Assembly: GCA_964016885.1 (NCBI GenBank)
Contig: OZ024740.1
Span: 143,592,001-143,656,000, forward strand
Source: Eledone cirrhosa
Lineage: Eukaryota
Reading direction: 5' to 3'
DNA: 64,000 bases
Shown one piece after another: positions 320 through 64,000 of the stretch (position 1 is the first letter of the stretch; each line of letters opens with the position of its first letter). The notes under the pieces were generated by a model that ran no database searches, was not told the DNA's origin, and saw nothing but the letters and a program-made list of their open reading frames with translations. A program made the position numbers and the translations under genes.

Positions 320-445
320 GAATACATCACTAAACTCATTACCTGCTCTCATTTTACTGACAGCACCTTTGTACATAGCTTGCATGGCTCTCATGACCCA
401 CTCATCTACACCCAGCTTCCTTAAGGACCACCAGATAACAGATCA
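320..445 (-). mobile_element. Short RTE LINE RT fragment
   Basis: Reverse complement matches the WWxLRKLGVDEWxxRAxQAMY segment of the RTE copies at ~27250 and ~55870. Confidence 0.7.
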
Positions 446-701
446 ATGTATAATTCTCTCTACAAGTATTAAATGTGTTATTATTCTAACAAAAGTAGAA
501 ATCCAGTTTTTCTTATCTGTAATTCAGCAACAAGCCTTTTAAGACCATTTTCCTTGCTATATTAAGGGTTATCCCTTCATGGCATCCTTTTTGAGGCAAT
601 ATTTTACAGCCACATTCCCTTCCTGTTGAAACCTCTTTTAGTCACCTCTTACAACACACATGGTTATGTAAAATCTGAAAATATATTTTCATCTTTTATA
701 G

Positions 702-743
702 ATATATCAATGGTCAATGCAAAGCTTAACATTGAAGCAAATG
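702..743 (+). CDS. Ig-domain GPI-type surface protein, copy A, coding exon 2 (end of signal peptide and first strand: YISMVNAKLNIEANG)
   Basis: Acceptor ttttcatcttttatag, donor G|gtaatt, 42 nt, phase 1-1. It avoids the TGA that direct exon1-exon3 splicing would create and gives a VNA|K signal cleavage site. Confidence 0.75.
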
Positions 744-1189
744 GTAATTGTATTATAAAAATCTTTGATTTTAAAACCAGATGCTATCTTTTCTACTCTG
801 CTTTCTGCTTCTTTCTCATAGTTAATAATCTTTAGTCACTAAATATATTTCCTCCTTTGAATGGGCAAAATTTCATCTTCAGAGCCCAAAAGACAATAAT
901 GATTATAAATATGATTGTGATTATAATATTGATTGTAGTAATACAAACTGTTATCTTAAAATATCAATTTGACAAAACTGTAGAAAGTAACTAAAGACTA
1001 TTTAGTAAAAACAAATGTATATATATATATATATATCAGCAGCAGCAGCAGCACTTAACATCTATTTTCCCTACTTTTGAGGATTGAATAGGTCGTTATA
1101 GAATAAGTCAGTACTTAATTGAAGCCAATAGCCTCTCAACAAGTCAGGTATCACATCTCACTTACATACATTCCTGAAATGTACATGTT

Positions 1190-1570
1190 GTAACAGATGC
1201 ATTTTATCATGGCACCAGCTCTAGAGGGGTTTTTGTACCCTTGATAAAACTGAAGAGGCTTCACAACTCTTTGTTGGCCCAGTTTTCTATGACTGAATAC
1301 CCTTCCTATCACCAACCACCTTATAGAATGTACTGGCTGGTTTTCTCATGTTGCCAACACTAGAGAGGTTTTCATGCCCTTAACACAACTGAAGCGTCCT
1401 CTTGACCCTTTTTTGGTGTGGTTTTTCCAGCTGGACGCCTCTCCTATCACTAACCACCTTACAAAGTGTACTGACTGCATCTTTTGTGGCACCAGCACTA
1501 GGGCAGTAGTCACGGTGTAGTCCTACAGATGGAAGCTCTTCCTAACACTAACCACTTTGATGGGGGAGGT
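1190..1570 (-). repeat. Tandem ~135-140-bp units related to the RTE LINE UTR (second array at ~4190-4560)
   Basis: Repeated cttcctatcaccaaccacc...gcaccagcactagagagg motif, also found at 15030-15110 and in RTE UTRs. Confidence 0.6.
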
Positions 1571-2127
1571 ATGAAGGATGATGTATATATGTGCACACAC
1601 ATACATATTACATATATGAATACATGTTCAGAATTCTGTACATTTTTGGAGACACTTGTGATCTGTACATAAGTTGGTATAACATGTGAGTAATGTAGCA
1701 TGTCATCAGGGTCATGGTCCTTGAAAGACTTTCAGTTGTCTCCAATGGTAACATGACACAAGATGATTAAAACTTAAGGATCTGCTGCAATATCTTCCGT
1801 CTTCTTCGTCATTATGTGAGTTAATTTAACACCTGCTTTATCACTATTGAAGATTGAAGACAATGAAACGCATTTAGTCTGAATCCTCACCCTCAACTTT
1901 GCAATCTTTAAAGACCCTACTAGGAGGACAAACCTTCTGATGACATCACTGTCAAGGTCTGATGAACATGCAAGCTTCTCCACCACATCATAGTAGATCT
2001 CTCATTCAATTTCTCATTAGTTCTGATAATCTTTATTATATATTTTTACTTTTAATTTCCATTATAAATATATCAAAGCTGATAAAAACTTAAACTTAAA
2101 TCAATAAATTTAATATATCTATTTCAG

Positions 2128-2376
2128 GAACAATTTGGTTAGGGGAAGAAATAACTCTTAAAACTCCAATCACTGCTAATACTTCGGCTATTACATGGAA
2201 AAGTGAAGGAAAGAATATTGCATGTGACAAAAGTTGCGGTGGGAATGAAGACTACAAAATTACTAGGGGAAATGGTTCATCTACCCTTTGGATAAGAAAT
2301 GTTTCTTGGCAATATCGTACATGGACAGTTATTGAAAATGATTTGGAAACTGATGACTTCACTATGGATATAAATG
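2128..2376 (+). CDS. Ig-domain protein copy A, exon 3 (V-like Ig domain)
   Basis: atttcag acceptor, G|gtaagg donor, 249 nt open, phase 1-1: TIWLGEEITLKTPITANTSAITWKSEGKNIACDKSCGGNEDYKITRGNGSSTLWIRNVSWQYRTWTVIENDLETDDFTMDIN. Ig-like motifs GEEITL, ITW, STLWIRNV. Confidence 0.85.
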
Positions 2377-3749
2377 GTAAGGAAATAATTTCTGATGATA
2401 ATAATCATGGAGCAAGTATTTTATGGTGTTAAATCAAAGTCAACATTTGTATTTTAATGATTTATTTTCTATCTTGAATTGTAATATTTCTGTAATATAT
2501 AATAATGTGGGATAGTTAACTAAATGAACTGGTTAGATTAACCCCTATGTCCTTGTTCTAATATCTTGACCACATTTCCAATAATTAGGTGTCTATATTA
2601 CCACTTAATTGTTATATGGTTGACAATCTTTCGGTATCTTCTAATATCTTAATCACATTCCCAGTGGTCACTTATCTAATGTTATATAACCCCTATAAAA
2701 TAAGCTAATTTGTCAGACTGCCATATTTGTTTTAAAAATGTTTGTTTTTTGAAATTCAGATGTTATGTTGATTTTATTTATTTTTTTTTTTTATATAGAA
2801 TTTTAAATAATAACATTCTTATTCCTTTTCTATCTCTAAGAATGATTCCACATTCCTTAGTACAGATGTATTGGAAGGTTTTATCTCTGAATGGTTTAGA
2901 AATCATATAAACACAAATTTAGCAGTATGTCTTATTTTATATAGTTTTCACAGAATTTTGAATCTCATAACTTGTTTGGTTTTAATATTGCAGTGAACTT
3001 TGTATATTTTTTGTTAGCCATGTGATGTTATAGACTATTTCCAACTCTCCTTATTTTCTGATAACTTTTTCTTGGAGTTGAAAACTGTGAAAACAACCAC
3101 ACATTAAGAAGACCCGCTTAACATTTGCAGAGATAGGAGAAATCAATCTAAATATACCTACAGACTAACAAAGAACAGTCTGTCTGAGGAACAATTTGTC
3201 CTCTATATATGATTATATACACTTACAGACTGATGAGGATTCTTTGTTACTAAAATATACATAAAACAACTTTATACTGATATTATTCTTGTTTTTTTTT
3301 CTTTCCTTTTTTCAATTCTTGAAATGACAAAGAAATTGGTCTTATTTTTCATTGATCAGAACCTTTTTCCAAATTCTCACTGCAAACAAATCTATTGTAA
3401 CCAAATCTTGACAATACAGTGTGGGAATAAAGAATCTGTAAATTAAAAAAATAGCTTGTGGTAGCAATAATAATAAAGGCTTACCTTGCTTCCAGAATTC
3501 ACTTAGAGGAATTTTTAATAGCAGCTCTTTCATGCTAAACAGCTTAAAACACCACACTTTTCTGTGAGTCTCACACTCACATACACACGCAACCATACTT
3601 TGAAAAAAATTCTATGTTGAAAGAGGATTGGAGTTCTGTTCCTTCACTAACCTGGCACTATTTCCCTCTCATACTTCTGGCTCTTAACCCACAATACTAC
3701 ATACATTTTAAAAGACGGTATCATAGAAGCAACTAATTCATTATCGCTG

Positions 3750-4155
3750 GCAGGGCCTATGAGAGGGGGTCCAACTAGTACTTTGTTCTGGGGGCCCAAG
3801 ACCTAAGAAGGCCCCACAGCAACCATGCAACATCCATTTTGAGAATTTGCCTGCTTCAGAGCAAAATTTCTCCTGGAAGCCCTGATCGCAGGCACAGTTT
3901 TTTCTTTGGCAATTTCAGTATTGAAAAGTCTTCTAGTAGATGTTTCTCAAATGAGATGGAGGTGGGTGCAAATATTCTAAAATGCTGCTATTCGCACCAG
4001 AAATCAACATTCTCTGTTAACTGTTCTCTCTCATTTTCTGCATCATCATCATTGAACAGCCATTCTCCCTGGTAGCAAGTGTTGGACAGGTTATTACAGA
4101 ATGAGTCAGTGCTCAAGTAGAGCTACTGACCTCTCAGATGGGTCAGAGGCCCACA
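3750..4155 (-). mobile_element. Degenerate hAT-like DNA transposon remnant
   Basis: cagggcc...ggggccc terminal-type motif, and minus-strand PTSISFE..FSILK resembling the hAT dimerization motif. Confidence 0.35.
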
Positions 4156-4575
4156 TTGTGCTTACATATATTTCCATACTCTATAGAGTGCACTTTATTG
4201 TGGCGCCAACATTAGAAAGGTTGTCATGACTTTGACACTGCTGAAGAAGCCTCTCAACCCTTTATTTGACCAGTTTTCTATGACTGAATACCTTTCCTAT
4301 CACCAACCACCTTGCAAAATGTACTGAGTTTGTTTAATTAAGTCACCAACACTAGAGAGGTTGTACCTTTGACGTAACGGAAGAATTCTTTTGACTCTTT
4401 TTAACACGGTTTCTATGACAGGATTCTCTTCCTATTGCCAACCAAGTCACAGGTTGTACTGGGCGCATTTTTTGTAGCACCAACATTAAGGAGGTTATTG
4501 GTAATTGAGTTAACTGAAGATCCCTCTCTACTCTATGGGAGGGGATGTTAAAAAGGATGGTAAGTATAATGCATG

Positions 4576-4612
<37 letters not shown>

Positions 4613-4649
4613 TTGTATGTATAATATGTACACATGATATATTTTGCAG

Positions 4650-4747
4650 TGAAGCCAACGATTCATTTTGAAATCAAACCAAATTGTGACTACAAAATAA
4701 AAACGACTTGTTCTAAACCCAAGACAAATATAACATGTCTCTACGAT
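4650..4747 (+). CDS. Ig-domain protein copy A, exon 4 (first half of domain 2)
   Basis: ttttgcag acceptor, gtaagt donor, 98 nt, phase 1-0: VKPTIHFEIKPNCDYKIKTTCSKPKTNITCLYD. Confidence 0.85.
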
Positions 4748-6214
4748 GTAAGTAAATGGAATTGGGTTTTTACCTGTTTCTCTTCCTATCATTAACCTAT
4801 TCAATTATGTGCTAGGGAGTGGATTGCTTAATTTTATTTAAGGTAACTGGAGTGAGTAGGGTGTATCTTGCTTAGAGACACAACACAATTACTCTAGTAC
4901 AGTATTTGTAATTCTAAGTCGGGACATATCAGTTCAAAATGAGATTAACAAAAAAAGATTTGACTATGGTATTTTAAGAAATGAACTGAGCATCAAATAA
5001 CATTGTGACATTTACAATGTGGAACTTGCTTGATTAAAAGTTTTTTATCAGTCCAGTAATGAAGCAAAAGAATCATCATCCATCATATGTAATATTTTCC
5101 AGTATTTTCATGTGTAAGTACAACAGTGGCACTGATCCATGATCATAACAATCTATGAGCTGACTGAGAGCAATGTTAGACACTTTTGTCTATGTTGATC
5201 AATGTTCACTTGATGCCTAAAAAAACACATTTTTGAAGCTGTGCACTCCATCAGATTTTAAAAATGGAATAATTCCATAGAAAATGAGATTTACAATTGT
5301 GATTCATAAAGAGCGGGTTTTCCATTTTGTTTACAATATCATATAAGACATGGGAGGACTTTCGGGTTAAGTTAGAACCTGACATTTGATCAGTAAATGA
5401 AATATTTTGGCAAACTATCTCCTGACTTCATTATAAGAAGTCCTCCTCTACACCTGCTTTCAAGAACTTGTCTGGGGTTCTTGTTTCTGAAGAGAGGTGC
5501 ATCCTCATAAGCTAGAGAGAGTACTTTGCTGATCCTGGGTCACAATAGTTAATGTACATGAGTAGTGTCTAACCTTGCGAAGGCTGTGGTCACCAGAGCA
5601 ATTAAAGTGCTCAAATGTGGCAAGGCCTCTGAGGAAGATGAAATTGGGCCTGAGGTTTAAAACCTTAAATAGAAAAGGTATGTTCTGGCTGATTCATGTG
5701 TTAGGTGGCCTGAATCTCTGTGAAGGCACCAAAGCACTAGCAGCAGGGAGTGATACAATTTTAGAAGAAGTGAGATTGCTCTAATTATTTGTTGTTAACA
5801 CAATATAAACTATAATAAAGTAAGAAGCGCGGGATTGCTTAGTAAAATAAGTTGGTTTACTTTGAATAAATAATGAATGAATATTACATAATTTATCTAC
5901 TAAATTTCGTGGCTGTTCATTAAATATATTTTATTATTTATTTAAAGATTCGCTTCTTTAAAATTTTCAAATGTAAACACTTCCGATCGCTTAAATAAAT
6001 ACTCATATATTTCCTTCACTAATTTTCTCCTAATGCAGTTTATATATAGTATCGTCTTTTTTAATGTATCATGGATTACATTACTGATTAAATAAGACAG
6101 TGTAATACAGTCTTCGTTCAATTTCTGTGTATATTGTCAATTACGATTTTATTTGATGTATCATATCTACATGCATATATACTTGCGTAAAATATCAATA
6201 TACACACTAAACAT

Positions 6215-10451: not shown

Positions 10452-10617
10452 AAAGATCTGAAACTTACACACGAATCTGAACCTTGTAATAATCGAAGTA
10501 GTAAATTAAACCCTCCTGATGTAAAGTTAATACACCAATCAACTACACCTGGGAAAATCAAATGTGATGTCCATCTTGATAGTCTTTTACTGTTTACTGT
10601 AAATAAAGAATTTGAAT
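10452..10617 (+). CDS. Ig-domain protein copy A, exon 5 (second half of domain 2)
   Basis: Long polypyrimidine tract ending ttctcag, T|gtaagg donor, 166 nt, phase 0-1: KDLKLTHESEPCNNRSSKLNPPDVKLIHQSTTPGKIKCDVHLDSLLLFTVNKEFE. Confidence 0.85.
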
Positions 10618-11071
10618 GTAAGGGCATGATTTTATCATTTTTATAAATAATATTGGAAATTGTTTTCAAATGTTCTTTGTTTAGATATATTCACTTCTTA
10701 GAATCTGCTCCCACCATCACTGTACTCCCCCAATTCCACCCCTTCCACTCATCACCCTGTCAAACCCCAGCACACCTATCTTATACCCATAACATATTCT
10801 CTTCACCTTTTTACTTCCTCACATCACCACTTGAAGCCAGGCATGGAACCTGTCACTCTCCACCTCTTGTCACCTATGATATACCTAATATCCTTTTTAC
10901 ATCCTTCATCGTCTCTCCCCAAATAAGTTGAGTGATTGCATAAATGCTGCATCATTGGCTCTAAAGGACTGTAGCATTACTTCTTCACATGAAGGTAACT
11001 TAGACAAACTATAACCACTTGATTTCTTGCAGCTATTAAATAAATAACAATATATTGGTTTTCTTTTGCAG

Positions 11072-11241
11072 GCACTAGCTCTTCAGTGAAGCCTCTTACT
11101 ACAATGACAGAGGATATTACTACAATGACACCTTTTACAATATCGTCTATTTCGGGTAATAGTGCAAAATCATGCATTTCCAGAATTTGGATGGAACTTA
11201 TTATTGGGATCATCATTACTGTTATCTGTTTAAGATATTAA
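11072..11241 (+). CDS. Ig-domain protein copy A, last coding exon (Ser/Thr stalk and GPI-like signal, stop)
   Basis: ttcttttgcag acceptor, phase 1: CTSSSVKPLTTMTEDITTMTPFTISSISGNSAKSCISRIWMELIIGIIITVICLRY*. Small-residue omega region (SGNSA), spacer, hydrophobic end, no cytoplasmic tail. Confidence 0.85.
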
Positions 11242-12739: not shown

Positions 12740-15164
12740 AAATCATCATCATCATTTTACGTCCGCTTTTCCCTGCTTGCAAGGGTGGGACGGGTCTTAT
12801 TCAGCACAGCATCTCTCCACTCGTCACGGTCCCTCGTCATCTCCACAGTGAGCTTCAATGATCTGAGGTCTGTTCTCACCACCTCCGCCCATGTTTTTCG
12901 TGGTCTACCTCTACCACGTCTTCCTTCAACTGGCATTTCCTGGCACTTCTTCACCCATCGGTCATCCTCCATGCGCATCACATGTCCATACCACCTCAGT
13001 CTCCTCTCCCGTACACTACATTCTATCCCTCTCAGACACAGTTTCTCTCTCAACACATTTATGCTGGGTCGTTCACGCACATTTACACTGCACATCCAAC
13101 GGAGCATGCTTGCCTCATTTCTCTCCAGCCGTCGCATATCCTCTGCGGTTGCTGCCCATGTCTCACTACCATGCAGCATCGCGCTCCTCACACAGGCATC
13201 ATACAACCGGCCTTTCGTACGCAGGGAGAAACCCTTCTTCGTCAACAGAGGAAGCAGCTCCCTAAACTTCTTCCAACCCGTCCTTATTCTAGATACTATG
13301 GCCTCGGAACACCCTCCTCCCATGCTAATCTGATCTCCTAGGTACCGGAAGCTATCCACCACTTCTATAGCGCCCTCTCGCATTTGAAAAATGTGTCTAT
13401 CAGTGCAACTTCTACTGTCTAATTTCCCTATACACCATATATAGCCTGATTGATGATGCGTGCAACCAGTTTAGTGCCTACGTCCCCTGATGCCTTCAGC
13501 ATCTCAGCAACTATTCCCGATGGTCCGGCCGCCTTACCATTTTTCATTTCCCTAATCGCCTCTTGGACCCTATATTCGTCAATCTCAATAGCTGGTCCCT
13601 CTGTCGGATCTACCAAGGGTAATTTTTCTCTCTCCCATTCGTTCTCCACATTCATCAGTCTCTCATAATGACATTTCCAGGCCTCCTTTTTCTGGTCATT
13701 CGTGACACTAAGTACACCGGCATCATCCCGGACACATTTATCTCCAACGACATCCTGATTTGCATTGACACACTGCCTTGCAATGTGGAACACCGCACGC
13801 CTCTGATCTTCCCGTCGCAGAACATTGGCAAACCTCCTACTCTCTGCCTCCCTGTGTGCTAAGTACACCTGACGTCTAGCTTCTCTCTTAGTGGCTGTAT
13901 ATTCTTCCCTACTCCCACCATTTTTCCAAGCCTTCCATGCTAGTCTTTTGTCTCTAATAGCCTTATCTACTGTGCTGTTCCACCACCAGGTCACTCTCTG
14001 TCTGGTTGGAGCTCTGCTCCAGCCACAGGTTTCATCAGTAGCCTGCAGCAAGTTGTCACGTAAGAACTTCCAGTTGTTATCTATGTCATACGTCTCTAAA
14101 TTGTCTTCTTTTTCGTCATATACATCTTGAAGGGCTTTCCTAAATTTGTATTTTAGTGAAAGGTCTTTTAGCTTCCAGACCTTTCTTCTCCACACCTTCC
14201 TATATGTCTCATTCCATCTCTTGCTTACTGAGATATCACTAACAACTAACCTATGCTGTGGGGTACATTCTTCCCCAGGGTATGCCTTGGTATTAGACAC
14301 TATCTGCCTGTCCCGCTGCCTAACTAGCAGGAAGTCAATCTGGCTTATGTGCTCACCAGATTTGTAGGTTATTAGGTGATTGGCAGGTTTCTGGAAGTTT
14401 GTGTTGCAAATAGTCAATGTACTCGCATCACAAAATTCAAGAAGTCTCACTCCTTCTTCATTTCTTGAACCGTAACCGTGTCCACCATGTACCCCAGTGT
14501 AACCATCCTGGAGCTGTCCAACATGATCATTGAAGTCTCCTGCTAGCATAACGATGTCTCCGTCCTCTGTCATTGTGGTTGTTTGCAAAAGTTGCTCATA
14601 AAAGCAGTCTTTCTCATCTTTGCCTAGGCCTGCTTGGGGAGCATAGACCGAGATGATTGTCAGTAGTCTCCTACCTACAACTAATCTAAGCTTAATTATT
14701 CGATTACTAACTCGAACTACCTCTATTGTCTTATTGATCCATTTCTCAGCCAGGAAAATGCCTACTCCCCCTAACTCATCATCATTACCTACCCAGAATA
14801 GCTTATAGCTAAGACGCTTGCCTACAACTAGTCTCGCAGAGGCACCTCTCCATCTCACCTCTTGCACGCAGCACACATCCACCTGCCTTCTCTCCAGCAT
14901 CTCTGCTATTTCAGCAGATCTACCTCTGAGAGTGCCAACATTAAGTGTTGCAACTCTGAGATGCGACGTCTTCATATTTTCCTATGCTGTTTTGTTGCTG
15001 TGCTGATAAGCTTTTTGGCATTGATACACTGGTTGGATGCCCTTACTAACACCAGCGCCACTTTACAGCATGGACTGGGTGCTTTTATTTGTGCCACCAG
15101 CACTAGAGAGGATGTCTTACTAGACTCAAGGGCCCTCTCTACCCCTCCATTTTACAGCAGGGTC

Positions 15165-17296: not shown

Positions 17297-17919
17297 ATAA
17301 TATAAAAGAGAGATATTTATTAGTTGGTTGAATCACACAAAAACTACACATACATCTAAAGAAAGAGAGAGATAGGCCATTATACAGTGAGAGATACAAG
17401 TGTTAAATATTCAGAGAGAGAGAGTGACATCCCACAAAAGTATAGAATCGGCTTAAACTATAGATGCTTTGATCCATAAGAAGGTTTAACAATATTGCAT
17501 TAGCTTTTATAAAGTAGTTTTACAGTCTTTGATTTTACAGAACAAAGAAAAATTGATATTTGAAATTAATCTACCCTCCAGCTTGTATCCATATACTACT
17601 TACAGTCTGTACTAACGGAGCAACACTTCAGAAGCAATGGTGCGTTTCAGATGACGTCCTTTGGAGCTGAAAAAGATCATACTGACTGGTTATTTCACAT
17701 TTAAAATCCAAGGCCAATGCTACCATTTAATCAGCAGTTTACTCCTCCATCTAATCCATGCTAGCGTGGAAGAACGGACGTAAAACGGTGATGATGATGA
17801 TGATGATCTACACAGTTTTGGTTACTAATTATCATCTGCAGTAGCATTTAATATCCACTTTCCATGCTTGTGTTGGTTAGACAGATTGTCACGTTATGAG
17901 ACAAGACAGGTCAAGTAAC

Positions 17920-30604: not shown

Positions 30605-30744
30605 TTTAAATGAGATATACGGAAAAGGAAAACCATGGCACAAATAGACATGTGCAGAAGATATTCTCAAAGGGGAGATAACTCACGTTAGATCGATGCA
30701 TGGAGGTAACTGCAAAAGATCAGAATACAATCATTCATGATACT

Positions 30745-32825
30745 CGGTCTATAGATGTGCTAGAAATAACGGCTACATCAGCTAAGCAGGGGGAACATCA
30801 GGTCTATATGTGTGCTAGAAATAGCAGCTAAAGGGGGGGGGGGCGTTATGGTGGTCCGTAGGTATGCTAAAAATAGCAGCTACATAAGCTAAATAGAATG
30901 TACCTCATTGTGGACGATAGGTGTGCTCCAAATAGCAGCTAAATAGGAGGAACCTTATGGTTGTCCATAGGTGTGCTAGAAATAGCAGCTAAATAGGGGG
31001 AACCTCATTGTTGTCCATAAGTATGCTAGAAATAGCAGCTAAATAGGGGGGGGGGGCTTATGATGGTCCGTAGGTGTGCTAAAAATAGCAGCTACATAAG
31101 CTAAATAGAATGAACCTCATGGTGGATGATAGGTGTGCTCCAAATAGCAGCTAAATAGCCTTATGGTTGTCCATAGGTGTGCTCGAAATAGCAGCTAAGT
31201 AGGGGGACCCATATGGTGGTCCATAGGTATGCTAGACATAACAGCTAAAAAAACTTCATGGTGGTCCAAGTGTGTGCTAGAAATAGCAGCTGCATCAGCT
31301 AAAAAAGGGAATCTAATGGTGGTCTATAGGTGTACTAGAAATAGCAGTTAAATAGGGGGATCATTATAGTGGTATATAGGTGTGCTACAAATAGCACCTA
31401 AATAGGGGGAACCTCATGGTGGTCAATAGGTGTGCTAGAAACAGTAGGTAAATAGCGGAACCTCATGGGAGTACATAGGTGTGCTAGAAATAGCAGCTGC
31501 ATCAGCTAAACAAGGGAATCTCATGGTTATCCAAAGGTGTACTAGAAATAACAGCTAAATAAAGGGAACTTCATGGTGAACTGTGTCCTAGATATATTAA
31601 CTAAATACGGGGAACCTCATGGTGTTCCATATGTGTGCTAGAAATAGCAGCTATATAGGGGAACCACATGGTGATCCATAGGTGTGCTAGAAATAGAAGC
31701 TGCATCACGTAAACAGGGGGAATCACGTGGTAGTCCATAGTTGTGCTAGAAATAGCATCTAAGTAAAGGGAACCCATGGTGGTCTATAGGTGTTCTAGAA
31801 ATAGCAGCTAAATTAGGGGAACCTCATAGTGGTCCATAGTTGTGCTAGAAATAGTAGCTAAATAGAGGGAACCTTATAGTGGTCTATAGCTGTGATAGAA
31901 ATAGTAGTTAAATAAGAGGAACCTTATGGTGGTTCTTAGGTGTGCTAGAAAGGGCTGTTACATCAGCTAAGCAGGAGGAACCTTATGGTGTATGTAGGTG
32001 TGCTAGAAGGAGTAGCTAAATAAAGAGAACCTCATGGTGATTCATAGGTGTGCTAGAAATAGCAGCAAAATAGGGGGATCCTTATGGTGGCCCATATGTG
32101 TGCTAGAAATAGCAGCTAAATACGGCGATCCTCATGTTGGGCCACACGTGTGCTAGAAATGGGAACTACACAGTGGTTCATAGGTGTGTTAGCAAAAGCA
32201 TCTAAATTGTTGTAACCCTTTTAGTGGTCGATAGGTGTGCTAGAAATAGCAGCGGCGTCAGGTAAACAGGGGAATATCATGGTGGTCCATAGGCGTGCTA
32301 GAAATAGCATCTAAATTAAGGGAAACCCATGGTGGTCTATAGGTTTCCTAGAAATAGCAACTAAAAAGGGGGAACTTCATGGTGGTCCATAGGTATGTTA
32401 GAAATAGCAGCTAAATAGGAGGAACCTTATAGTGGACCATAGATGTGCTAGAAATAGCATCTACATCAGCTAAACAGGGGCAACGTCATGGTGTCCATAG
32501 CTGTGCTAGAAATAGCAGCTAAATAAGGTCAACCTCATATGTATCCATTTGTTGTGCTAGAAATAGCAGCTAATAGGGGGAACCTCATAGTGGTACCTAT
32601 GTGTGCTACAAATAGTAGCTAAATAGGAGGGACCTTATAGTGGTCCATATCTGTGCTAGAAATAGCAGCTTGATGGAGAGGAACCTGATGATGGTCCATG
32701 GGTGTACTAGAAATAGCAGCTACATCAGCTAAGCAGGTGGAACTTAATGGTTGTCCGTAGGTGTGCTAGAAATAGCGGCAAAATAAAGTGAACCTCGTGG
32801 TGGTCCATAGGTGTCCATAGGTGTC
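30745..32825. repeat. Satellite array, ~50-bp monomer, about 40 copies
   Basis: Consensus ggtgtgctagaaatagcagctaaatagggggaacctcatggtggtccata. Confidence 0.95.
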
Positions 32826-42319: not shown

Positions 42320-45300
42320 TCAGGAGAACGGTTGTCTCTAACCGGAGATTGTAAGACGGGTGTCGGCGAAAGTCTCAATGAGGAAGCCGACATCCTGAGG
42401 ACCAGAATTCTGTCTGCAAAAACAACCACACGTATTGGATATTGGAACATAAGAACTATGTACCAACCATCCAAACTTGCACAAGTTATCGGAGAAATAG
42501 AGGCCTACACAATTAACATCCTGGGCCTCAGCGAGGTCCGCTGGACTGACTCTGGGAAGTTTGTCCATGAAAACAAGACCATCCTGTTCTCAGGCCGTCA
42601 GAACGGGACCCACCGAGATGGAGTTGCAATCATCATGGACAGGGCTGCCAGCGGTGCCCTTGAGGAGTGAACTCCTATCAACGAACGCCTAATGACAGCA
42701 AGATTCACCACATCACATGCAAAGGTCACCATAGCTCAGTGCTATGCTCCAACCAACGAACATAACGATGATGACAAGGACGCTTTCTACCAGCAACTAC
42801 AAGATGTTGTAAACAAAACCCCACGTCATGACATCCTGATCATCATGGGAGACATGAACGCACAGATCGGGGGAAGCAGGGTTGGCTTTGAACATGTCCT
42901 TGGCCCCCATGCTTATGGAAACCGCACGGACAACGGGGACAGGTTTGTCCAGTTCTGTGCCATGAACAATATGAAAATCGGCTCGTCACTATTTGACCAC
43001 AAGAACACCCACAGGTCACATGGGCTTCGAACGACCACAGGACCAAGACGCAAATAGACCACATTGCGATTGGCCCAAGTTGGAGAGCTCCTTGCCTGCA
43101 GGACGTCCGAGTCTACCGGGGCGCAGATGTCTGCAGTGACCACTATCTGTCTGTTACCAAACTTAAAATCAGACTGAGGAAGCAGAAAAAGAGAGCACTC
43201 ACTACAAGGCGTTTTGACACTACCAAGCTGAAGAACGGTGACACAGAGGCACAGTTCGAGGCTGCTTTGAGGAACAGATTTGCTGTCCTTGAGGAGTCTG
43301 CACCAGGATCGGTCAATTGGTGGGAGGAAATGAAGAAGACCATGGAAGCTGCAGGGGAAGAAATCCTGGGCTACAGGAAGTCCCTCAGAGAAGCTTGGGT
43401 CAGCGACAACACCTGGCAGCTGATTAATGAAAGGAAAACCCTACATCAGCAGAGGCATGCCACTACCCCAGAGGCCATCAAGGTATATCAGCAGTATGTT
43501 GACAAGGACAAGGAGGTGAAACGCAGCGCACAAAAGGACAAACGCATGTGGATTGAGGGTAAGGCGGGGGAGGCGGAAGCAGCTGCGGCACGCAATGACA
43601 TGCGCTCTGTGTACCAAATTGCCAAGAAAATCACCGGCAGCTCTAGAGCTAACTCAGGCCCGGTGAAAGCGAAAGATGGTACGCTGCTTTCCAAGGGTGA
43701 AGAAAAGTTAGACAGATGGGCTGAACATTTCAAGGAAGTCCTCAACCGACCGGAGCCACGTGTGCCAGCAGACACTAAGGAACCTATTAGTTTGTTGCCT
43801 ATCAATACTGATGACTTCACCGAGAAGGAAGTCCGCATGGCCATAAAAACCCTTAAGAATAACAAGTCACCAGGTATGGATGGCATTTCTGCTGAAATGC
43901 TGAAGTCAGGAGGCGAAAGCATGGTCAAGTGGATGGGCCACTTATGTAATCTTGTGTGGAACACGGGTGAAGTCCCAGCAGATTGGAGAAACGGAGCGGT
44001 TGTCTGTATCCCCAAGAAGGGCAACCTTGCCGATTGTGACAACTGGAGGGGAGTGACACTTCTCTCCATACCAGGGAAGGTCTATTGTCTGATGATCCTG
44101 AACCGCATACGTGGCATGGTAGACCGGGAACTGCGAGAACAACAGGAAGGGTTCCGACCAAAACGTTCCTGTGCAGAGCAGATCTTTACCTTACGCCGCA
44201 TCATTGAGAGGTACAACGAATTCCAGAGGCCCCTCGCCGTCAGCTTCATCGATTTCTCCAAAGCATTCGATAGCTCTCATCGGCCGTCACTCTGGAGCAC
44301 CATGCATGAGTATGGTCTGCTCCAGAAAGTCATTTCGGCAATCAAACAGATTTACGCAGACTCCAAGTGCTGCATACGGACAGAGGATGGTTACAGTGAC
44401 TGGTTTGAGGTGGTTACTGGTGTGCGTCAGGGTTGCTCGCTCTCTCCAATTCTCTTTGCCATAGCCATTGACTGGGTACTAAGAAGAGCGTCTAAAGACC
44501 AGGGTATATCTTGGGTGGGAGAGCAAAAGTTGTCTGACCTGGACTTTGCGGACGATATTGTTGGACTTGCAGAGAGCACAGCTGACCTGCAAATCATTAT
44601 GAACAATATCAATGTCGAAGCAGGAAGCTTAGGTCTCAATATCAGTGCTAAGAAGACCAAAAGCATGTTATCTGGGACACACCCATCACCAACTGGTGTT
44701 TTCATTGAACAGGGGGGGGGGGGGGAGATAGTGGACAACTTCACCTACCTAGGAAGCTCCATTGACAATGGGGGCGCCATGGACAGTGAATTGCAGTGTA
44801 GAATGGAAAAGGCTTCAGCAGCATTTAACCAGCTTGTCAAGATCTGGAAGAGCAGGAAGTTCACCCTCAAAACAAAGATGAGATTCTACAACAGCAACGT
44901 GCTGTCCACACTCTTGTACGGAAGTGAAACATGGCACCTTAAGACCAGCCAAGAGAAGAAGTTGGACGCATTCGATTCCAGGTGTCTGCAAAAGATCCTG
45001 GGGATTAAATGGAGTGACCATGTAACAAACCAGGAAGTCAGGAACCGCACCAACCAGCAGCTGGTCTCTTCTGCCATCTGCAAGCGACGCCTGGGCTGGT
45101 TTGGACACGCTTTGAGACTTCCCCCGGAGAGACTGGCGAACCAAGTACTTAAATGGAACCCACAGGGAAGCAGACGGAGAGGGCGACCCAAAATGAACTG
45201 GCGCCAGACAGTTGAAAGGGACCTGCGAGCGACAAACAGACAATGGCGGGACGCTGTGCAACTGGCTGCTGACCGAACGCGGTGGAACACTATGATTGCC

Positions 45301-45345
45301 TCATGTGTCGCAAGACGCGGGAGCTTCTGAGTCAGAGTCTGAGAG
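42320..45345 (+). mobile_element. Near full-length RTE-clade LINE (APE+RT), lightly disabled
   Basis: YWNIRTM, SEVRW, YAPT, GDMNAQ, then the 687-aa RT ORF 43267-45330 (DFSKAFD, GVRQG, FADD). One TGA at 42668 and a frameshift near 43010. Confidence 0.95.
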
Positions 45346-51420: not shown

Positions 51421-51900
51421 CTATCTATCTATATATATAAAACTGAGGATGTGTGTGTGTATGTGCATACCCACATAACTTCCACAGTTTGCAACCGACT
51501 TTCTTCAAATTTGGAACAAACATGCATTATGTTCCCAGGAGTGTTTTGGACTCATAAAATTTCAAGTTTTTGTCTAATGTGGCCCCTAGATAAATATTAG
51601 TTGGTTGCATGAAAACTACACACATACATATACATCTAAAGAGAGAGAGAGAGAGTGAGATAGGCCGTTATACAGAGAGAGATAAAGATATTCAGATAGA
51701 GAGAGAGAATGGCGACGAACGCTGGTTTACACACGCACACACATAAAGAGAGAGATATCTGTGCGTTCTTGATTGTTCTTCATTCTGTAGAGAAAGATAG
51801 AGAGGGTATGAGAAAAAAGAGAGAGAGGGGTTCAGAAAGAAAGAAAGATTGTAGGGGGTTGGGGAGGGAAGAAAATGATAGCAGCGTTCAATAACTTTAA
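51421..51900 (+). mobile_element. Non-autonomous Helitron-like/microsatellite-bearing element
   Basis: tctatatatataaaa start, (gt)n, caaccgac...aaatttgg motif, (ga)n tract shared with 17315-17425. Confidence 0.5.
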
Positions 51901-54489: not shown

Positions 54490-57136
54490 TTGACAATGTC
54501 AAAGGTAAAGATAAATTCACCTCCTGTTGTCGGGCGAGAATGCAAGAACTCCTCTTTATTTCAGGCACGGATGGCCAAAATAATCCCATCTCCCACACCC
54601 CTTCCTGTGCCTCCAACCTATCCCTTCCACCCACCCAACGAAATCCAAAACTTCAGAGTTGGTACCATGAATGTAGGCACTTTGAAAGTTTGCTCTAACG
54701 AGGTTGTAGAGATGCTTGAACGTAAGGAAGTTGATGTTTGTTGTGTTCAAGGACTAGATTCATTGTGGGTAAAAAACGATGCTATAAACTTTTCTGGGTG
54801 GGGTGGGGTGGTGTAGGAATTATGTTAGCAGAAAAATGGGTAGATAAGGTAATTGCCGTAAATAGAGTGAACGACAGAATAATTAAAATAAGACTAGTTC
54901 TAAATAGAAGTACTGTGACAATAATATCTGCTTATGCATCCCAATCTGGCCTACCTGACGTTATAAAAGACAGATTCTATGAGTCGCTAATGCTCACTAC
55001 CTCCCAAATAACCGACAGTGACTACATAATTATTGCTGGTGACCTAAATGGTCATGTTGGACAACATTGTGACGGTTATGACGGGATCCATGGAGGCTAT
55101 GGGTTTGGTACTAGAAATGAGGACGGCTTCAGAATCCTGGAATTCTGTGACGCTAATAACCTAACTATCTGTAACACAAACTTCAAAAAATGAGACAATC
55201 ACTTGATCACTTATAGATCAGGGGAACACACCAGTCAGATAGATTATATCCTTACTAGAAGACGTGACAGAGTGTCTGTTGTAAATACTAAATCCCTCCC
55301 CCGTGAAGAATGCACCTCCCAAGTGCACCGCCTCATAGTTAGCAACCTCATACCCAAGACTAGACATACTCGACAACAGAGGAGAAGAATATGGAAGTTG
55401 AAGGACCCCACAGCCTGTAACAAATTTAAAAGTATATTACTTGATGCTTTTGACAGTAAGAAAGAGCAATTAGAGACGTACAGCATCTGGAATGGTGGGA
55501 CACACTATGGTCACCTGGATAGTAAACCAAGTAATACAGAATGGAATCATACCAAATGACTGGCGTAGCAGCATCATCATTAACTGCTACAAGGGTAAAG
55601 GAGATGCTCTAGATAGGGGAAATTATAGAGGCATTAAGTTAGTTGACCAGGTCATGAAGGTCACAGAAAGAGTTATAGTGCAACTAATCACAGAGCGAAT
55701 TGATCTAGATGAAATGCAGTTTGGGTTTGTGTCAGGTAAAAGTACCACATACTCTTTTCCTTGTATGGCAACTACAGGAGAAGTACCTAGATAAAAGTAA
55801 ACCCCTCTATTTAGCTTTTATTGACTTGGAGAAAGCCTTTGACAGAGTCTCCCCACCCCCCTCCATTATCTGGTGGACTCTTAGAAAACTTGGTGTAGAT
55901 GAATGGCTTGTGATAGCTATACAAGCCATGTATAGAGGAACAGTCAGCAACGTTAGAATTAACAATAAATATAGTGAAGAATTTAGCATCAAAGTTGGTG
56001 TTCATCAAGGCTCTGTCTTTAGCCCCCTCTTATTTATTATTGCCCTTCAAGCTATAACAGAGGAGTTCAAGACCGGCTGCCCGTGGGAACTTCTATACGC
56101 AGATGATCTAACTCTCATAGCTGAATCGATGGCTGAACTAGAGAAGAAATTCCAAACATGGAAGCATGGCCTAGAATCAAAAGGCCTTAAAGTTAACTTG
56201 TCTAAGACTAAAGTTCTAGTATGTAGAAAGGAAAATAGGGCACAGGTGCCCTCTGGGAAATGGCCATGCTCAGTGTGTAGGAAAGGAGAAGGCAGAAATT
56301 TCAAATGTCCCAAATGCAAACTATGGGTACATAAAAGATGTAGTGGGATCACAGGTAAACTATCTAAGAAGGTAGATTTTATATGTGGTCGATGCTCAGG
56401 TTCAATAAGTAGCAAGTGCCCACAGGATACTAGCTCCTTCTATTGCCCAGATGGTTCTATAGAAATTGTGGACACTTTCCGTTGCCTGGGTGACAAAATC
56501 AGCAGTGGTGGAGGGTGCTCTGAAAGTACAGTAGCCAGAGTCAGAACGGGATGGAAAAAGTTCAGAGAGCTTATACCATTATTGGCCACTAAAGGTTTCT
56601 CTCTAAAAATGAAAGGTAGATTGTAAGATGCCTGTATACAAACAGCAATGTCTAATAGTAATATACGCGAATGGCAAAAGATAAATGAACTGGACCGAGA
56701 TCTTTGTGCATAGTGAAACCTTCAGTCAGTAGGCACCGCTTAACCAACACCTTGCCTATGTGCATAGTGAAACCTACAGTCAGTAGGCACCGCTTAACCA
56801 AATATACACCCCATCCTACTACCCCCGACTCCACCCTCCCACTCCTGCCAACACTACCCTTTCTCTGTAAAGTTATGTTGGTACCACAACATCCACTCCA
56901 AAATAAATGAGGTTGTGTAGGTGTCATGATAAAAAAACACAGTCCACGCTGTAATGTGGCCGTGTAGGTAACACAGTAAAAAACTCCCAGTCCACACTGT
57001 AAATGTGGTTGGTGTTAGGAAGGGCATCCAGCCGTAGCAAACCTGCCAGCCAGTCCTATACGAGCAAGACATGGTCACCCGACCGTCTAAACCCATGCTA
57101 GCGTGGAAGATAGACGTTAAACAATGATGATGATGA
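54490..57136 (+). mobile_element. RTE LINE with two internal deletions
   Basis: APE 54738-55480, RT 55709-56626 (DLEKAFD, GVHQGS, YADD, CxxC...HKRC finger), 3' UTR with (tga)n. High identity to 37720-38740. Confidence 0.92.
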
Positions 57137-57530: not shown

Positions 57531-57570
57531 ATGAAGATTTTACCACTACTCTATTTGCTGGCAATGACTT
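57531..57570 (+). CDS. Ig-domain protein copy B, coding exon 1 (ATG and signal peptide MKILPLLYLLAMT)
   Basis: Strong acceptor ctttttcattttttcag at 57527, ATG at 57531, hydrophobic core, T|gtaagt donor, phase 1. Confidence 0.8.
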
Positions 57571-57762: not shown

Positions 57763-58915
57763 TTAATGCAGCTTTCTTCCACTGGCATTTGTGCATCCAA
57801 ACGGAAGACGGGTAAATTCGTATATTCGGCCACAGGCTTCGAATGCAGTCAACTTAAAGTCGGAAGATTTGATGGGTATTTGGTGATAAGCTGCCTTTAG
57901 ATCTATTTTCGAGAAATATTTGTGTTTTGAAATTTTGTTGAGTAGGTCTTCGATTATGGCATTAGTGGTGTGTAACGATTTATAGTGCCTGAGTAGTCTA
58001 TGACAAGCCTTTTTTTGTTTTCTTGATCTATTACGAAACACTGCGCTCTCCATGGGCTTCTGCTCTGTTGAATTATTCCAGCTTTAAGCATTCTGTCGAT
58101 TTCCGTTTTAATGAATTGCTGATCTTTATTGTATTTTCGAGGAGGTATAGATAATGGTTTTAATTTTGTAGTATCGATTCCAGGCATTAAATCATATTCT
58201 TCACAATTCAGAGTTTGCATTGACATACATGTCGTGACTGCTCTCATGTCCCCTGCATATTTTATTGTTAAAGACTTATGCCTTTTAAGTATATCAAGAG
58301 CCATAACTACTGGAGCAAAGAGTTTGTCAACCACCATTAGATCGATGTGGTATTCTCGGCCCTCCCATTCTAATGTTGTTTCAAATGTACCTCGTATTAT
58401 GAGTTTACTGTTGTCGGCTAAAATTACACTCTTATTCTTAGTTTTCTTGAATTTACTTTGCCATTTCGACAAGTGGTTCATGTCAATGAAAGACTTGCCT
58501 GTGTCAAGTAAACCTTCTGTTTTATGTGAATTGACATAAATTGTTAAAAAGTTTGTATTATGATTCACGGAAGCAAGTTTATAGCAGGCAGCAATATTAC
58601 TGCCATCATTGGAGCCCTCGTTATTATTCAAGACTGCTGCGTGTTTTATCTTCTTTAGTACCTTCTTATTTTTAACAAAACATACTGTTGCCCAGTGGCC
58701 TTTCTTGTGGCAGAAATTGCAAGTTGAATTTTTTGCAGGGCACTCTGATTTTTGGTGATATGTACTACCACACCAGAAACATTTTAATGAAGAAGCAGCG
58801 AATACGGGTTGTGACGGCGGTTGTATTGTTGTTGTTGACAGATTTTGTGCGTCTTCTATTGCCAGTTCTAATGTGAGAGCGGTTTGGAATGTTTTATCTA
58901 GATTTTTGAAACTTC
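57763..58915 (-). mobile_element. Ty3/Gypsy gag-protease-RT fragment inside intron 1 of the Ig gene
   Basis: LLDTG protease, SPWRAQ, RLVIDY, FSKIDLKAAYHQIPI, EFTRLPFG. No LTRs seen. Confidence 0.9.
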
Positions 58916-59309
58916 TACCTGTATCTTGAATACATCACTAAACTCATTACCTGCTCTCATTTTACTGACAGCACCTTTGTACATAGCTTGCATGGCTCTC
59001 ATAACCCACTCATCTACACCCAGCTTCCTTAAGGACCACCAGATAACAGATCAATGTATAATTCTCTCTACAAGTATTAAATGTGTTATTATTCTAACAA
59101 AAGTAGAAATCCAGTTTTTCTTATCTGTAATTCAGCAACAAGCCTTTTAAGACCATTTTCCTTGCTATATTAAGGGTTATCCCTTCATGGCATCCTTTTT
59201 GAGGCAATATTTTACAGCCACATTCCCTTCCTGTTGAAACCTCTTTTAGTCACCTCTTACAACACACATGGTTATGTAAAATCTGAAAATATATTTTCAT
59301 CTTTTATAG

Positions 59310-59351
59310 ATATATCAATGGTCAATGCAGAGCTTAACATTGAAGCAAATG
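59310..59351 (+). CDS. Ig-domain protein copy B, exon 2 (YISMVNAELNIEANG)
   Basis: Duplicate of 702-743 with one K>E change. Confidence 0.75.
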
Positions 59352-60731
59352 GTAATTGTATTATAAAAATCTTTGATTTTAAAACCAGATGCTATCTTTT
59401 CTACTCTGCTTTCTGCTTCTTTCTCATAGTTAATAATCTTTAGTCACTAAATATATTTCCTCCTTTGAATGGGCAAAATTTCATCTTCAGAGCCCAAAAG
59501 ACAATAATGATTATAAATATGATTGTGATTATAATATTGATTGTAGTAATACAAACTGTTATCTTAAAATATCAATTTGACAAAACTGTAGAAAGTAACT
59601 AAAGACTATTTAGTAAAAACAAATGTATATATATATATATCAGCAGCAGCAGCAGCACTTAACATCTATTTTCCCTACTTTTGAGGATTGAATAGGTCAT
59701 TATAGAATAAGTCAGTACTTAATTGAAGCCAATAGCCTCTCAACAAGTCAGGTATCACATCTCACTTACATACATTCCTGAAATGTACATGTTGTAACAG
59801 ATGCATTTTATCATGGCACCAGCTCTAGAGGGGTTTTTGTACCCTTGATAAAACTGAAGAGGCTTCACAACTCTTTGTTGGCCCAGTTTTCTATGACTGA
59901 ATACCCTTCCTATCACCAACCACCTTATAGAATGTACTGGCTGGTTTTCTCATGTTGCCAACACTAGAGAGGTTATCATGCCCTTAACACAACTGAAGCG
60001 TCCTCTTGACCCTTTTTTGGTGTGGTTTTTCCAGCTGGACACCTCTCCTATCACTAACCACCTTACAAAGTGTACTGACTGCATCTTTTGTGGCACCAGC
60101 ACTAGGGCAGTAGTCACGGTGTAGTCCTACAGATGGAAGCTCTTCCTAACACTAACCACTTTGATGGGGGAGGTAAGAAGGATGATGTATATATGTGCAC
60201 ACACATACATATTACATATATGAATACATATTCAGAATTCTGTACATTTTGGGAGACACTTGTGATCTGTACATAAGTTGGTATAACATGTGAGTAATGT
60301 AGCATGTCATCAGGGTCATGGTCCTTGAAAGACTTTCAGTTGTCTCCAATGGTAACATGACGCAAGATGATTAAAACTTAAGGATCTGCTGCAATATCTT
60401 CCGTCTTCTTCGTCATTATGTGAGTTAATTTAACACCTGCTTTATCACTATTGAAGATTGAAGACAATGAAACGCATTTAGTCTGAATCCTCACCCTCAA
60501 CTTTGCAATCTTTAAAGACCCTACTAGGAGGACAAACCTTCTGATGACATCACTGTCAAGGTCTGATGAACATGCAAGCTTCTCCACCACATCATAGTAG
60601 ATCTCTCATTCAATTTCTCATTAGTTCTGATAATCTTTATTATATATTTTTACTTTTAATTTCCATTATAAATATATCAAAGCTGATAAAAACTTAAACT
60701 TAAATCAATAAATTTAATATATCTATTTCAG

Positions 60732-60980
60732 GAACAATTTGGTTAGGGGAAGAAATAACTCTTAAAACTCCAATCAGCGCTAATACTGCGGCTATTACAT
60801 GGAAAAGTGAAGGAAAGAATATTGCATGTGACAAAAGTTGCGGTGGGAATGAAGACTACAAAATTACTAGGGGAAATGGTTTATCTACCCTTTGGATAAG
60901 AAATGTTTCTTGGCATTATCGTACATGGACAGTTATTGAAAATGATTTGGAAACTAATGACTTCACTATGGATATAAATG
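60732..60980 (+). CDS. Ig-domain protein copy B, exon 3 (V-like Ig domain)
   Basis: Duplicate of 2128-2376, open, splice sites intact, 5 amino-acid differences. Confidence 0.85.
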
Positions 60981-63178
60981 GTAAGGAAATAATTTCTGAT
61001 GATAATAATCATGGAGCAAGTATTTTATGGTGTTAAATCAAAGTCAACATTTGTATTTTAATGATTTATTTTCTATCTTGAATTGTAATATTTCTGTAAT
61101 ATATAATAATGTGGGATAGTTAACTAAATGAACTGGTTAGATTAACCCCTATGTCCTTGTTCTAATATCTTGACCACATTTCCAATAATTAGGTGTCTAT
61201 ATTACCACTTAATTGTTATATGGTTGACAATCTTTCGGTATCTTCTAATATCTTAATCACATTCCCAGTGGTCACTTATCTAATGTTATATAACCCCTAT
61301 AAAATAAGCTAATTTGTCAGACTGCCATATTTGTGTTAAAAATGTTTGTTTTTTGAAATTCAGATGTTATGTTGATTTTATTTTTTTTTTTTTTTTATAT
61401 AGAATTTTAAATAATAACATTCTTATTCCTTTTCTATCTCTAAGAATGATTCCACATTCCTTAGTACAGATGTATTGGAAGGTTTTATCTCTGAATGGTT
61501 TAGAAATCATATAAACACAAATTTAGCAGTATGTCTTATTTTATATAGTTTTCACAGAATTTTTAATCTCATAACTTGTTTGGTTTTAATATTGCAGTGA
61601 ACTTTGTATATTTTCTGTTAGCCATGTGATGTTATAGACTATTTCCAACTCTCCTTATTTTCTGATAACTTTTTCTTGGAGTTGAAAACTGTGAAAACAA
61701 CCACACATTAAGAAGACCCGCTTAACATTTGCAGAGATAGGAGAAATCAATCTAAATATACCTACAGACTAACAAAGAACAGTCTGTCTGAGGAACAATT
61801 TGTCCTCTATATATGATTATATACACTTACAGACTGATGAGGATTCTTTGTTACTAAAATATACATAAAACAACTTTATACTGATATTATTCTTGTTTTT
61901 TTTCTTTCCTTTTTTCAATTCTTGAAATGACAAAGAAATTGGTCTTATTTTTCATTGATCAGAACCTTTTTCCAAATTCTCACTGCAAACAAATCTATTG
62001 TAACCAAATCTTGACAATACAGTGTGGGAATAAAGAATCTGTAAATTAAAAAAATAGCTTGTGGTAGCAATAATAATAAAGGCTTACCTTGCTTCCAGAA
62101 TTCACTTAGAGGAATTTTTAATAGCAGCTCTTTCATGCTAAACAGCTTAAAACACCACACTTTTCTGTGAGTCTCACACTCACATACACACGCAACCATA
62201 CTTTGAAAAAAATTCTATGTTGAAAGAGGATTGGAGTTCTGTTCCTTCACTAACCTGGCACTATTTCCCTCTCATACTTCTGGCTCTTAACCCACAATAC
62301 TACATACATTTTAAAAGACGGTATCATAGAAGCAACTAATTCATTATCGCTGGCAGGGCCTATGAGAGGGGGTCCAACTAGTACTTTGTTCCGGGGGCCC
62401 AAGACCTAAGAAGGCCCCACAGCAACCATGCAACATCCATTTTGAGAATTTGCCTGCTTCAGAGCAAAATTTCTCCTGGAAGCCCTGATCGCAGGCACAG
62501 TTTTTTCTTTGGCAATTTCAGTATTGAAAAGTCTTCTAGTAGATGTTTCTCAAATGAGATGGAGGTGGGTGCAAATATTCTAAAATGCTGCTATTCGCAC
62601 CAGAAATCAACATTCTCTGTTAACTGTTCTCTCTCATTTTCTGCATCATCATCATTGAACAGCCATTCTCCCTGGTAGCAAGTGTTGGACAGGTTATTAC
62701 AGAATGAGTCAGTGCTCAAGTAGAGCTACTGACCTCTCAGATGGGTCAGAGGCCCACATCGTGCTTACATATATTTCCATACTCTATAGAGTGCACTTTA
62801 TTGTGGCGCCAACATTAGAAAGGTTGTCATGACTTTGACACTGCTGAAGAAGCCTCTCAACCCTTTATTTGACCAGTTTTCTATGACTGAATACCTTTCC
62901 TATCACCAACCACCTTGCAAAATGTACTGAGTTTGTTTAATTAAGTCACCAACACTAGAGAGGTTGTACCTTTGACGTAACGGAAGAATTCTTTTGACTC
63001 TTTTTAACACGGTTTCTATGACAGGATTCTCTTCCTATTGCCAACCAAGTCACAGGTTGTACTGGGCGCATTTTTTGTAGCACCAACATTAAGGAGGTTA
63101 TTGGTAATTGAGTTAACTGAAGATCCCTCTCTACTCTATGGGAGGGGATGTTAAAAAGGATGGTAAGTATAATGCATG

Positions 63179-63209
<31 letters not shown>

Positions 63210-63246
63210 TTGTATGTATAATATGTACACATGATATATTTTGCAG

Positions 63247-63344
63247 TGAAGCCAACGATTCATTTTGAAATCAAACCAAATTGTGACTACAAAATAAAAA
63301 CGACTTGTTCTAAACCCAAGGCAGATATAAAATGTCTCTACGGT
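63247..63344 (+). CDS. Ig-domain protein copy B, exon 4
   Basis: Duplicate of 4650-4747: VKPTIHFEIKPNCDYKIKTTCSKPKADIKCLYG, 4 amino-acid differences. Confidence 0.85.
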
Positions 63345-64000
63345 GTAAGTAAATGGAATTGGGTTTTTACCTGTTTCTCTTCCTATCATTAACCTATTCA
63401 ATTATGTGCTAGGGAGTGGATTGCTTAATTTTATTTAAGGTAACTGGAGTGAGTAGGGTGTATCTTGCTTAGAGACACAACACAATTACTCTAGTACAGT
63501 ATTTGTAATTCTAAGTCGGGACATATCAGTTCAAAATGAGATTAACAAAAAAAGATTTGACTATGGTATTTTAAGAAATGAACTGAGCATCAAATAACAT
63601 TGTGACATTTACAATGTGGAACTTGCTTGATTAAAAGTTTTTTATCAGTCCAGTAATGAAGCAAAAGAATCATCATCCATCATATGTAATATTTTCCAGT
63701 ATTTTCATGTGTAAGTACAACAGTGGCACTGATCCATGATCATAACAATCTATGAGCTGACTGAGAGCAATGTTAGACACTTTTGTCTATGTTGATCAAT
63801 GTTCACTTGATGCCTAAAAAAACACATTTTTGAAGCTGTGCACTCCATCAGATTTTAAAAATGGAATAATTCCATAGAAAATGAGATTTACAATTGTGAT
63901 TCATAAAGAGCGGGTTTTCCATTTTGTTTACAATATCATATAAGACATGGGAGGACTTTCGGGTTAAGTTAGAACCTGACATTTGATCAGTAAATGAAAT

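Follow-up and report, generated by a model that had tools for sequence, protein, structure and literature searches.

In chimpanzee CD4, a P68T substitution in the first immunoglobulin (Ig) domain (D1) creates an occupied N66 glycan site that blocks SIV entry (PMC6386711). The octopod gene array analysed here resembles primate CD4 in that an Ig D1 sequon (N-x-S/T) arises by substitution to Ser or Thr C-terminal to an existing Asn, amid other replacements. The two differ in that the variants of CD4, a transmembrane protein encoded by a single gene, are alleles, the site has been shown to be occupied and the viral ligand is known (PMC6386711), whereas the array varies among paralogues, changes at three sites together and is known from sequence alone. 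Primate CEACAMs (PMC8860441) likewise form tandem arrays of Ig surface proteins on which positive selection and conversion between copies have acted, but we found no sequence relationship to them, CEACAMs are absent from the listed fold matches, and no adhesin or paired signalling tail is known for the array. Human proteins have also gained sequons under positive selection, including the Ig adhesion protein CD166; these (PMC4314935) are single sites in conserved single-copy genes, whereas the array differs between paralogue classes. The array lies outside the CD4, CEACAM and human sequon-gain families. Few variable recognition molecules have been described in cephalopods, and the array offers a very young natural experiment, its copies being 0.3–0.5% apart in introns and differing at three sequons and 13 other residues.

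The window analysed, a 64,000-nucleotide stretch of the Eledone cirrhosa genome, contains exons of two neighbouring copies, A and B, of a gene present as nine tandem copies, 48–61 kb apart, on one contig (G000:C1:143306527-143776385; frames intact in 9/9). Their coordinates are collected in Table 1; copy B continues past the end of the window with its exons 5 and 6. Six coding exons encode 254 residues, laid out as a signal peptide, D1 (exon 3), a second Ig domain, D2 (exons 4–5), a stalk rich in Thr and a tail-less hydrophobic end, and the AG/GT exon bounds are present in all nine copies. GPI-type features (signal peptide, small-residue omega site, spacer, hydrophobic terminus, no tail) were recognized by eye in every array copy and in all four retrogenes described below; from this C-terminus we infer that the array proteins are probably GPI-anchored, a tail-less transmembrane anchor being the alternative. 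A 21-base repeat in the stalk (exon 6, window 11072-11241) has two additional units in copy 4 and one in copy 9, so that stalk length, and likely O-glycan load, vary.

Table 1. Exons and sequons of copies A and B, in window positions (X4, run with spliced contigs; gains as polarised by a distant outgroup).
Feature	Position	Strand	Remarks
Copy A (array copy 6) exon 2	702..743	+	end of signal peptide, start of D1, N27 of N27-G-T; splice joint 742-2127 in X4
Copy A exon 3, Ig-like D1	2128..2376	+	weak Pfam I-set match below cut-off, E 0.006; joints in X4
Copy A sequon N45-T-S47 (apparent gain by A47S)	2178..2186	+	BC loop of D1 on model
Copy A sequon N76-G-S78 (apparent gain by L78S)	2271..2279	+	DE turn of D1; one residue from N77
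Sequon N85-V-S87, common to A and B	2298..2306 (copy A)	+	in 23/58 octopod D1 domains
Copy A exon 4, first half of D2	4650..4747	+	joint 2375-4649 in X4
Copy A sequon N137-I-T139	4727..4735	+	apparent gain, V>D>N at 137 with K>T at 139; opens D2 strand C
Copy A exon 5, second half of D2	10452..10617	+	N157-R-S at 10491-10499; joint 10617-11072 in X4
Copy A exon 6	11072..11241	+	Thr-rich stalk, variable 7-residue repeat, hydrophobic C-terminus without cytoplasmic tail
Copy B (array copy 7) first coding exon, signal peptide	57531..57570	+	
Copy B exon 2	59310..59351	+	
Copy B exon 3 (D1)	60732..60980	+	N45-T-A 60782-60790, N76-G-L 60875-60883, N85-V-S 60902-60910
Copy B exon 4	63247..63344	+	D137-I-K at 63324-63332

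Window positions 1-5403 and 58609-64000 are 99.26% identical, A and B differing over this repeat by 29 substitutions and 11 gap columns. Exons 2–4 hold 11 of the substitutions in 389 coding bases (2.8%), against 18 in ~5,000 intron bases (0.36%), and read from A to B there are ten replacements: K21E, T43S, S47A, S78L, Q89H, D103N, T136A, N137D, T139K and D143G. Those at 47, 78, 137 and 139 fall inside sequons, and because 137 and 139 share one sequon they amount to three events. An earlier note on this DNA had reported that N45-T-S, N76-G-S and N137-I-T of copy A are NTA, NGL and DIK in copy B, with NGT and NVS common to both; the alignment bears this out exactly, NGT (N27) being split by the exon 2/3 junction and NVS lying at N85, and N157-R-S in exon 5 is also common. 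Its figure of four sequon hits in ten replacements is correct for exons 2–4, but represents three events and becomes 4 of 17, with 13 outside sequons, over the whole ectodomain once exon 5 of B is fetched from the genome. With ten random replacements placed in codons 21-143, three or more sequon changes had a probability of 0.037 starting from A and 0.006–0.009 starting from B; with 18 placed in codons 21-200, the corresponding values were 0.13 and 0.04–0.05, and three or more gains starting from B had P 0.003–0.006. The A/B sequon pattern thus exceeds chance expectation when the differences are read as gains and is marginal without direction.

Across the array, type A comprises copies 2, 3, 6 and 8, which have six sequons (27, 45, 76, 85, 137, 157); copies 4, 5 and 7 have three, copy 9 has those plus N45 and copy 1 those plus N150, each A/B sequon state being found in 4–5 copies. 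Of the suggestion that the paralogues are glycoforms, the existence of two classes differing in sequon number (6 versus 3–4) stands. Another chromosome contains four intact intronless retrogenes in tandem, 7.5 kb apart (G000:C2:173850267-173873604), with ~51% protein identity to the array copies and ~840 bases of 3′ sequence in common. Their signal peptide and C-terminal stretch are near-identical to those of the intron-bearing genes; their Ig domains have diverged and they carry seven variable sequons, one of them in the stalk. Two broken processed copies with stops and frameshifts were also located (G000:C2:357995987-357996400, + strand; G000:C2:72291270-72291925, − strand).

The array ectodomain is under strong positive selection. 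Over codons 21-200, with each variable column counted as one event (recurrent change is ignored), the nine copies show 30 replacements at ~430 sites against 122 variable columns at 12,210 intron and flank sites, a 7-fold excess (Fisher p 4e-15), and against 2 silent changes at 110 sites (p 0.04); silent sites and introns do not differ (p 0.30). The stem leading to type A has replacements at 7/430 sites versus intron changes at 6/12,210 (p 7e-8), and the retrogenes have 51/426 replacements versus 3/108 silent changes (p 0.004).

We sought relatives that might name the family. The only named homologues were uncharacterised Octopus and Argonauta proteins (19 matches in a full HMMER search, one of them dropped; 33 in a profile search), among them O. 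bimaculoides LOC106868859 and LOC106876057, O. sinensis LOC115210431 and LOC115225115, and Argonauta hians GAB1602944 and GAB1602345. Compared with the retrogene they are 26–36% identical, with E values down to 1e-27 and significant homology over both domains, and the family is marked by a C-strand Trp, C-x3-C and S-x-L-W-I in D1 and by six cysteines in D2. The dropped match, P0021, a beta-propeller/Hsp70 protein (E 4e-4), was the sole non-family match in the full search and was discarded as a chance match. A single-sequence search with the retrogene returned none of 182 candidates, a Pfam scan of two retrogenes gave no family, and exon 3 of A and of B matched Pfam I-set at 17.1 and 15.5 bits, below the curated cut-off of 23.7. 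An atlas search placed a cluster of mollusc 'Ig-like' proteins on top (0.94) and no named family. No CEACAM, CD2 or butyrophilin sequence homology was detected, all named family matches being from Octopus or Argonauta. A literature search for this octopod Ig family that included octopod locus ids, with subscription journals and supplements outside its scope, found no paper on it.

To place the variable sites, D1-D2 of a retrogene, which is ~54% identical in D1 to the array copies and is neither copy A nor copy B, was modelled from 26 sequences (pLDDT 86.4, pTM 0.77), giving two beta-sandwich domains of Ig topology; an earlier model built from four near-identical sequences was set aside (pLDDT 29.6). 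Foldseek, on which the fold comparison is based, returned at least 500 matches below E 0.001, and those listed were V+C Ig tandems (E 3e-9 to 8e-8, TM 0.55–0.74, 9–17% identity). On this model the match is to a generic Ig fold and names neither family nor function; butyrophilin BTN3A1, CD200R, PD-L1, nectin-3 and Neph1, all with V+C ectodomains, are like the array in fold only. The canonical B-F strand disulfide is absent from D1, whose only cysteines, C60 and C64, lie near strand C′. This disulfide is likewise missing from certain other Ig domains, among them CD2 D1 and the CEACAM N-domain, and the CEACAM family includes GPI-anchored members. We predict that the array encodes an octopod-specific two-Ig surface protein of the immunoglobulin superfamily, with a V/I and C-type tandem.

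On the modelled strands, N45 falls within the BC loop and N76 within the DE turn, both of which are at the membrane-distal end of Ig domains, and N137 lies at the start of D2 strand C, near the hinge. Three of the sequon gains in the retrogenes, at 50, 61 and 102, are on strands C, C′ and G; the C, C′, G face is the binding face of CD2- and CEACAM-type proteins.

Splicing was examined in run X4, whose kind is unrecorded and which we treat as transcript-derived because its contigs join exons (2-3, 3-4 and 5-6) at GT..AG. A single 612-base spliced contig over exons 2–4 carries three private exon-3 replacements of copy 9 (K56R, I58L and A59V, on strand C′; four base changes confined to a ten-base stretch) and four exon-4 differences, the number expected for copy 9, matched by count and not by letter. 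This copy-9-type contig encodes N45, without N76 and N137; as X4 is another sample and contigs drop variants, it shows the presence of one type only, and copies are neither ranked nor counted by contig depth. Separately, A-to-I RNA editing is common in cephalopods, and A-to-G changes occur among the type-A to type-B differences (T136A, N137D, D143G, D166G and I170M; window 4724-4746 and 10519-10532). Editing could in principle convert N137 to D and remove that sequon in transcripts.

We next consider the direction of the sequon changes. No orthologue above 36% identity was found, so the array cannot be rooted on another species, and polarity was taken from the four retrogenes, a distant outgroup. 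Codon ladders lead from the outgroup to type A at position 47 (GCT>GCG>TCG), 78 (CTT>TTA>TCA), 137 (GTT>GAT>AAT, copy 9 keeping GTT) and 139 (GAA>AAA>ACA). With the support of this distant outgroup, N45, N76 and N137 appear to be gains in the type-A class, none lost; site 47 would count as a loss if the root were at copy 9. N137-I-T required two coordinated changes. A fourth gain, N150, is in copy 1, and it has a parallel in retrogene 3, where an H-to-N change at the same D2 position also produced a sequon (N151). The earlier note had described the sequons as switched between copies: the three differences are real, but 'gained' fits better. A templated donor for T136-N137-I-T139 was unsupported, the retrogenes carrying the other state, and a protein search of the genome for donors scored 34 candidates and gave 15 matches (nine array exons, four retrogenes, two broken retrocopies), none new.

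Under the main null, which fixes the carriers of all 30 changes and places the changes at random under five models (uniform, intron mutation spectrum, BLOSUM and position weights, with family variability used in place of surface exposure), the nine copies with the outgroup root show 4 gains and 0 losses against 0.55–0.73 gains expected (P 0.002–0.004), and the 10 changes on the path to type A include 3 gains (P 0.0006–0.001). Rooting on copy 9 or on the majority state gives 3 gains (P 0.011–0.026). Tabulating sequons over all nine copies against a null, as the earlier note had proposed, yields an excess at the outgroup root; the result is root-dependent and the retrogenes, whose 51 changes include 4 gains and 2 losses, are borderline (P 0.02–0.09 by random placement, 0.06–0.17 by shuffle). 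Because the sequon hypothesis was chosen after the A/B pair had been seen, the retrogenes and non-A copies, which are independent of the idea, form the fair test; they show 5 gains versus 2.1–3.2 expected (P 0.05–0.18), a ~1.6- to 2.4-fold excess in the same direction as in the array. Selection on sequons specifically is at most moderately supported.

The best explanation, to which we give about an even chance, is that a conflict-driven surface receptor gained glycans masking its tip. The type-A class of the positively selected array would have gained three sequons; as predicted sites, these probably place N-glycans at the membrane-distal tip and at the hinge between the domains; the added glycans would mask or reshape a binding surface; and the binder would most likely be microbial or parasitic. 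For this explanation we infer the occupancy of the glycans, selection directed at them and the kind of partner. Glycan-directed selection in the array is plausible. The claim of selection on glycan shielding made in the earlier note draws on the excess of gains at the outgroup root and is weakened by the other roots, by the direction-free count and by the idea-independent data. If the glycans are occupied and binding is altered, CD4-like receptor defence would extend to fixed classes of molluscan paralogues, and the proteins might serve as bait for the binder; if not, the array still makes a strong example of diversifying selection in an unnamed family of octopod Ig proteins.

A possible, though somewhat unlikely, alternative is that selection acted on surface residues and that exposed loops rich in Asn, Ser and Thr yielded sequons incidentally, the gains being a post hoc chance cluster. 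The pooled gains and losses, taken without direction, are compatible with this (P 0.04–0.06), as are the worst root, on type A (P 0.13–0.14), and the non-circular test (P 0.18); moreover, 13 of the 17 A/B replacements are off sequons, and type A acquired T136 and S160 as well, neither of which creates a sequon and both of which agree with the family consensus (T in 10/10 and T or S in 10/10, respectively). A stricter null, in which derived residues are kept and only their positions shuffled, gives P 0.054 when changes are moved among places with the same ancestral residue, which this alternative also accommodates, and 0.009 when any non-Cys/Trp place is allowed. Yet the path to type A stays unusual even with its derived residues kept (P 0.017 and 0.006), and among 13 motifs compared in the nine copies N-x-S/T gave the lowest P in both shuffles, the 12 control motifs, of shifted spacing, being unenriched (all P at least 0.08). 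The two coordinated changes behind N137-I-T and the parallel gain at 150/151 also argue against an incidental origin.

A different role for the glycans, in folding, stability or surface lifetime, with N76 restoring a lost DE-loop glycan and the others offsetting destabilising changes, is improbable. It has in its favour that the commonest family sequon, N77-x-S79, is found in 32 of 58 D1 domains from octopods (isoforms counted separately) and in 4/4 retrogenes but in 0/9 array copies, whose position 77 is Gly; N76 restores a site one residue away. However, 5/9 copies without a DE sequon have intact frames, a transcript of such a type is seen, and N45 and N137 match no family site, relatives lacking sequons at 45 (0/58) and at 137 (0/10).

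The masking of a receptor tip against a microbial or parasitic binder must also be weighed against glycoforms that tune recognition by the animal's own partners, in allorecognition, gamete recognition or neural wiring codes, a reading that we regard as very improbable. Clustered, tailless two-Ig proteins do act as cell-recognition codes, as in Dpr/DIP and Hydractinia Alr, and the fold of the array is also like that of nectin-3, Neph1 and CD200R. Replacements at 7 times the intron rate, at 0.3–0.5% intron divergence, suit conflict better than a wiring code; a gamete or allorecognition conflict is compatible with the replacement excess.

Site patterns among the array copies are mosaic. In the intron tree, type A forms a weak clade (70%) beside copies 4+9 (100%), and exon patterns clash with this tree: in exon 5, copy 9 groups with copies 5 and 7, and in exon 3, copy 4 groups with copies 1, 5 and 7. 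The conflict points to gene conversion among array copies. Copies 1–4 mirror copies 5, 6, 8 and 9, with intron distances of 0.03, 0.06, 0.29 and 0.16%, and each mirrored block has a short spacer before its last copy (47.9 and 49.8 kb), so the array would reflect duplication of a block or, alternatively, the tandem assembly of two haplotypes, one with four copies and one with five. Both sequon classes are present inside each block under either reading. That the A/B difference stems from assembly errors or from drift in decaying copies, to which the mirroring and the possibility of tandem haplotypes lend some colour, is highly improbable and largely refuted, since each state is found in 4–5 copies with both classes in each block and frames intact in 9/9, a 7-fold bias towards replacement sites is not expected from errors or drift, and contigs from two samples contain alleles of both kinds.

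Beyond receptor-tip masking in the array, a broader proposal, which we put forward tentatively and consider rather unlikely, is that the array copies and intact retrogenes together represent an undescribed octopod arms-race receptor family repeatedly selected for N-glycan gain. If true, lightly and heavily glycosylated versions would coexist in one animal, for example as exposed decoys beside shielded working copies, and the family would provide a paralogue-level glycan shield in an invertebrate.

Other features of the window lie between the coding exons. Positions 51597-51717 are 79% like the sequence just 5′ of the retrogene start codons and may represent a non-coding 5′ exon belonging to copy B, or else a small repeat, as a weaker match at 17297-17392 would suggest. 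A degenerate tandem repeat of ~2 kb occupies 30735-32816, and long open frames between the copies resemble remnants of LINE-type retrotransposons (42997-45327, + strand; 13431-14981, − strand; 55709-56623, + strand).
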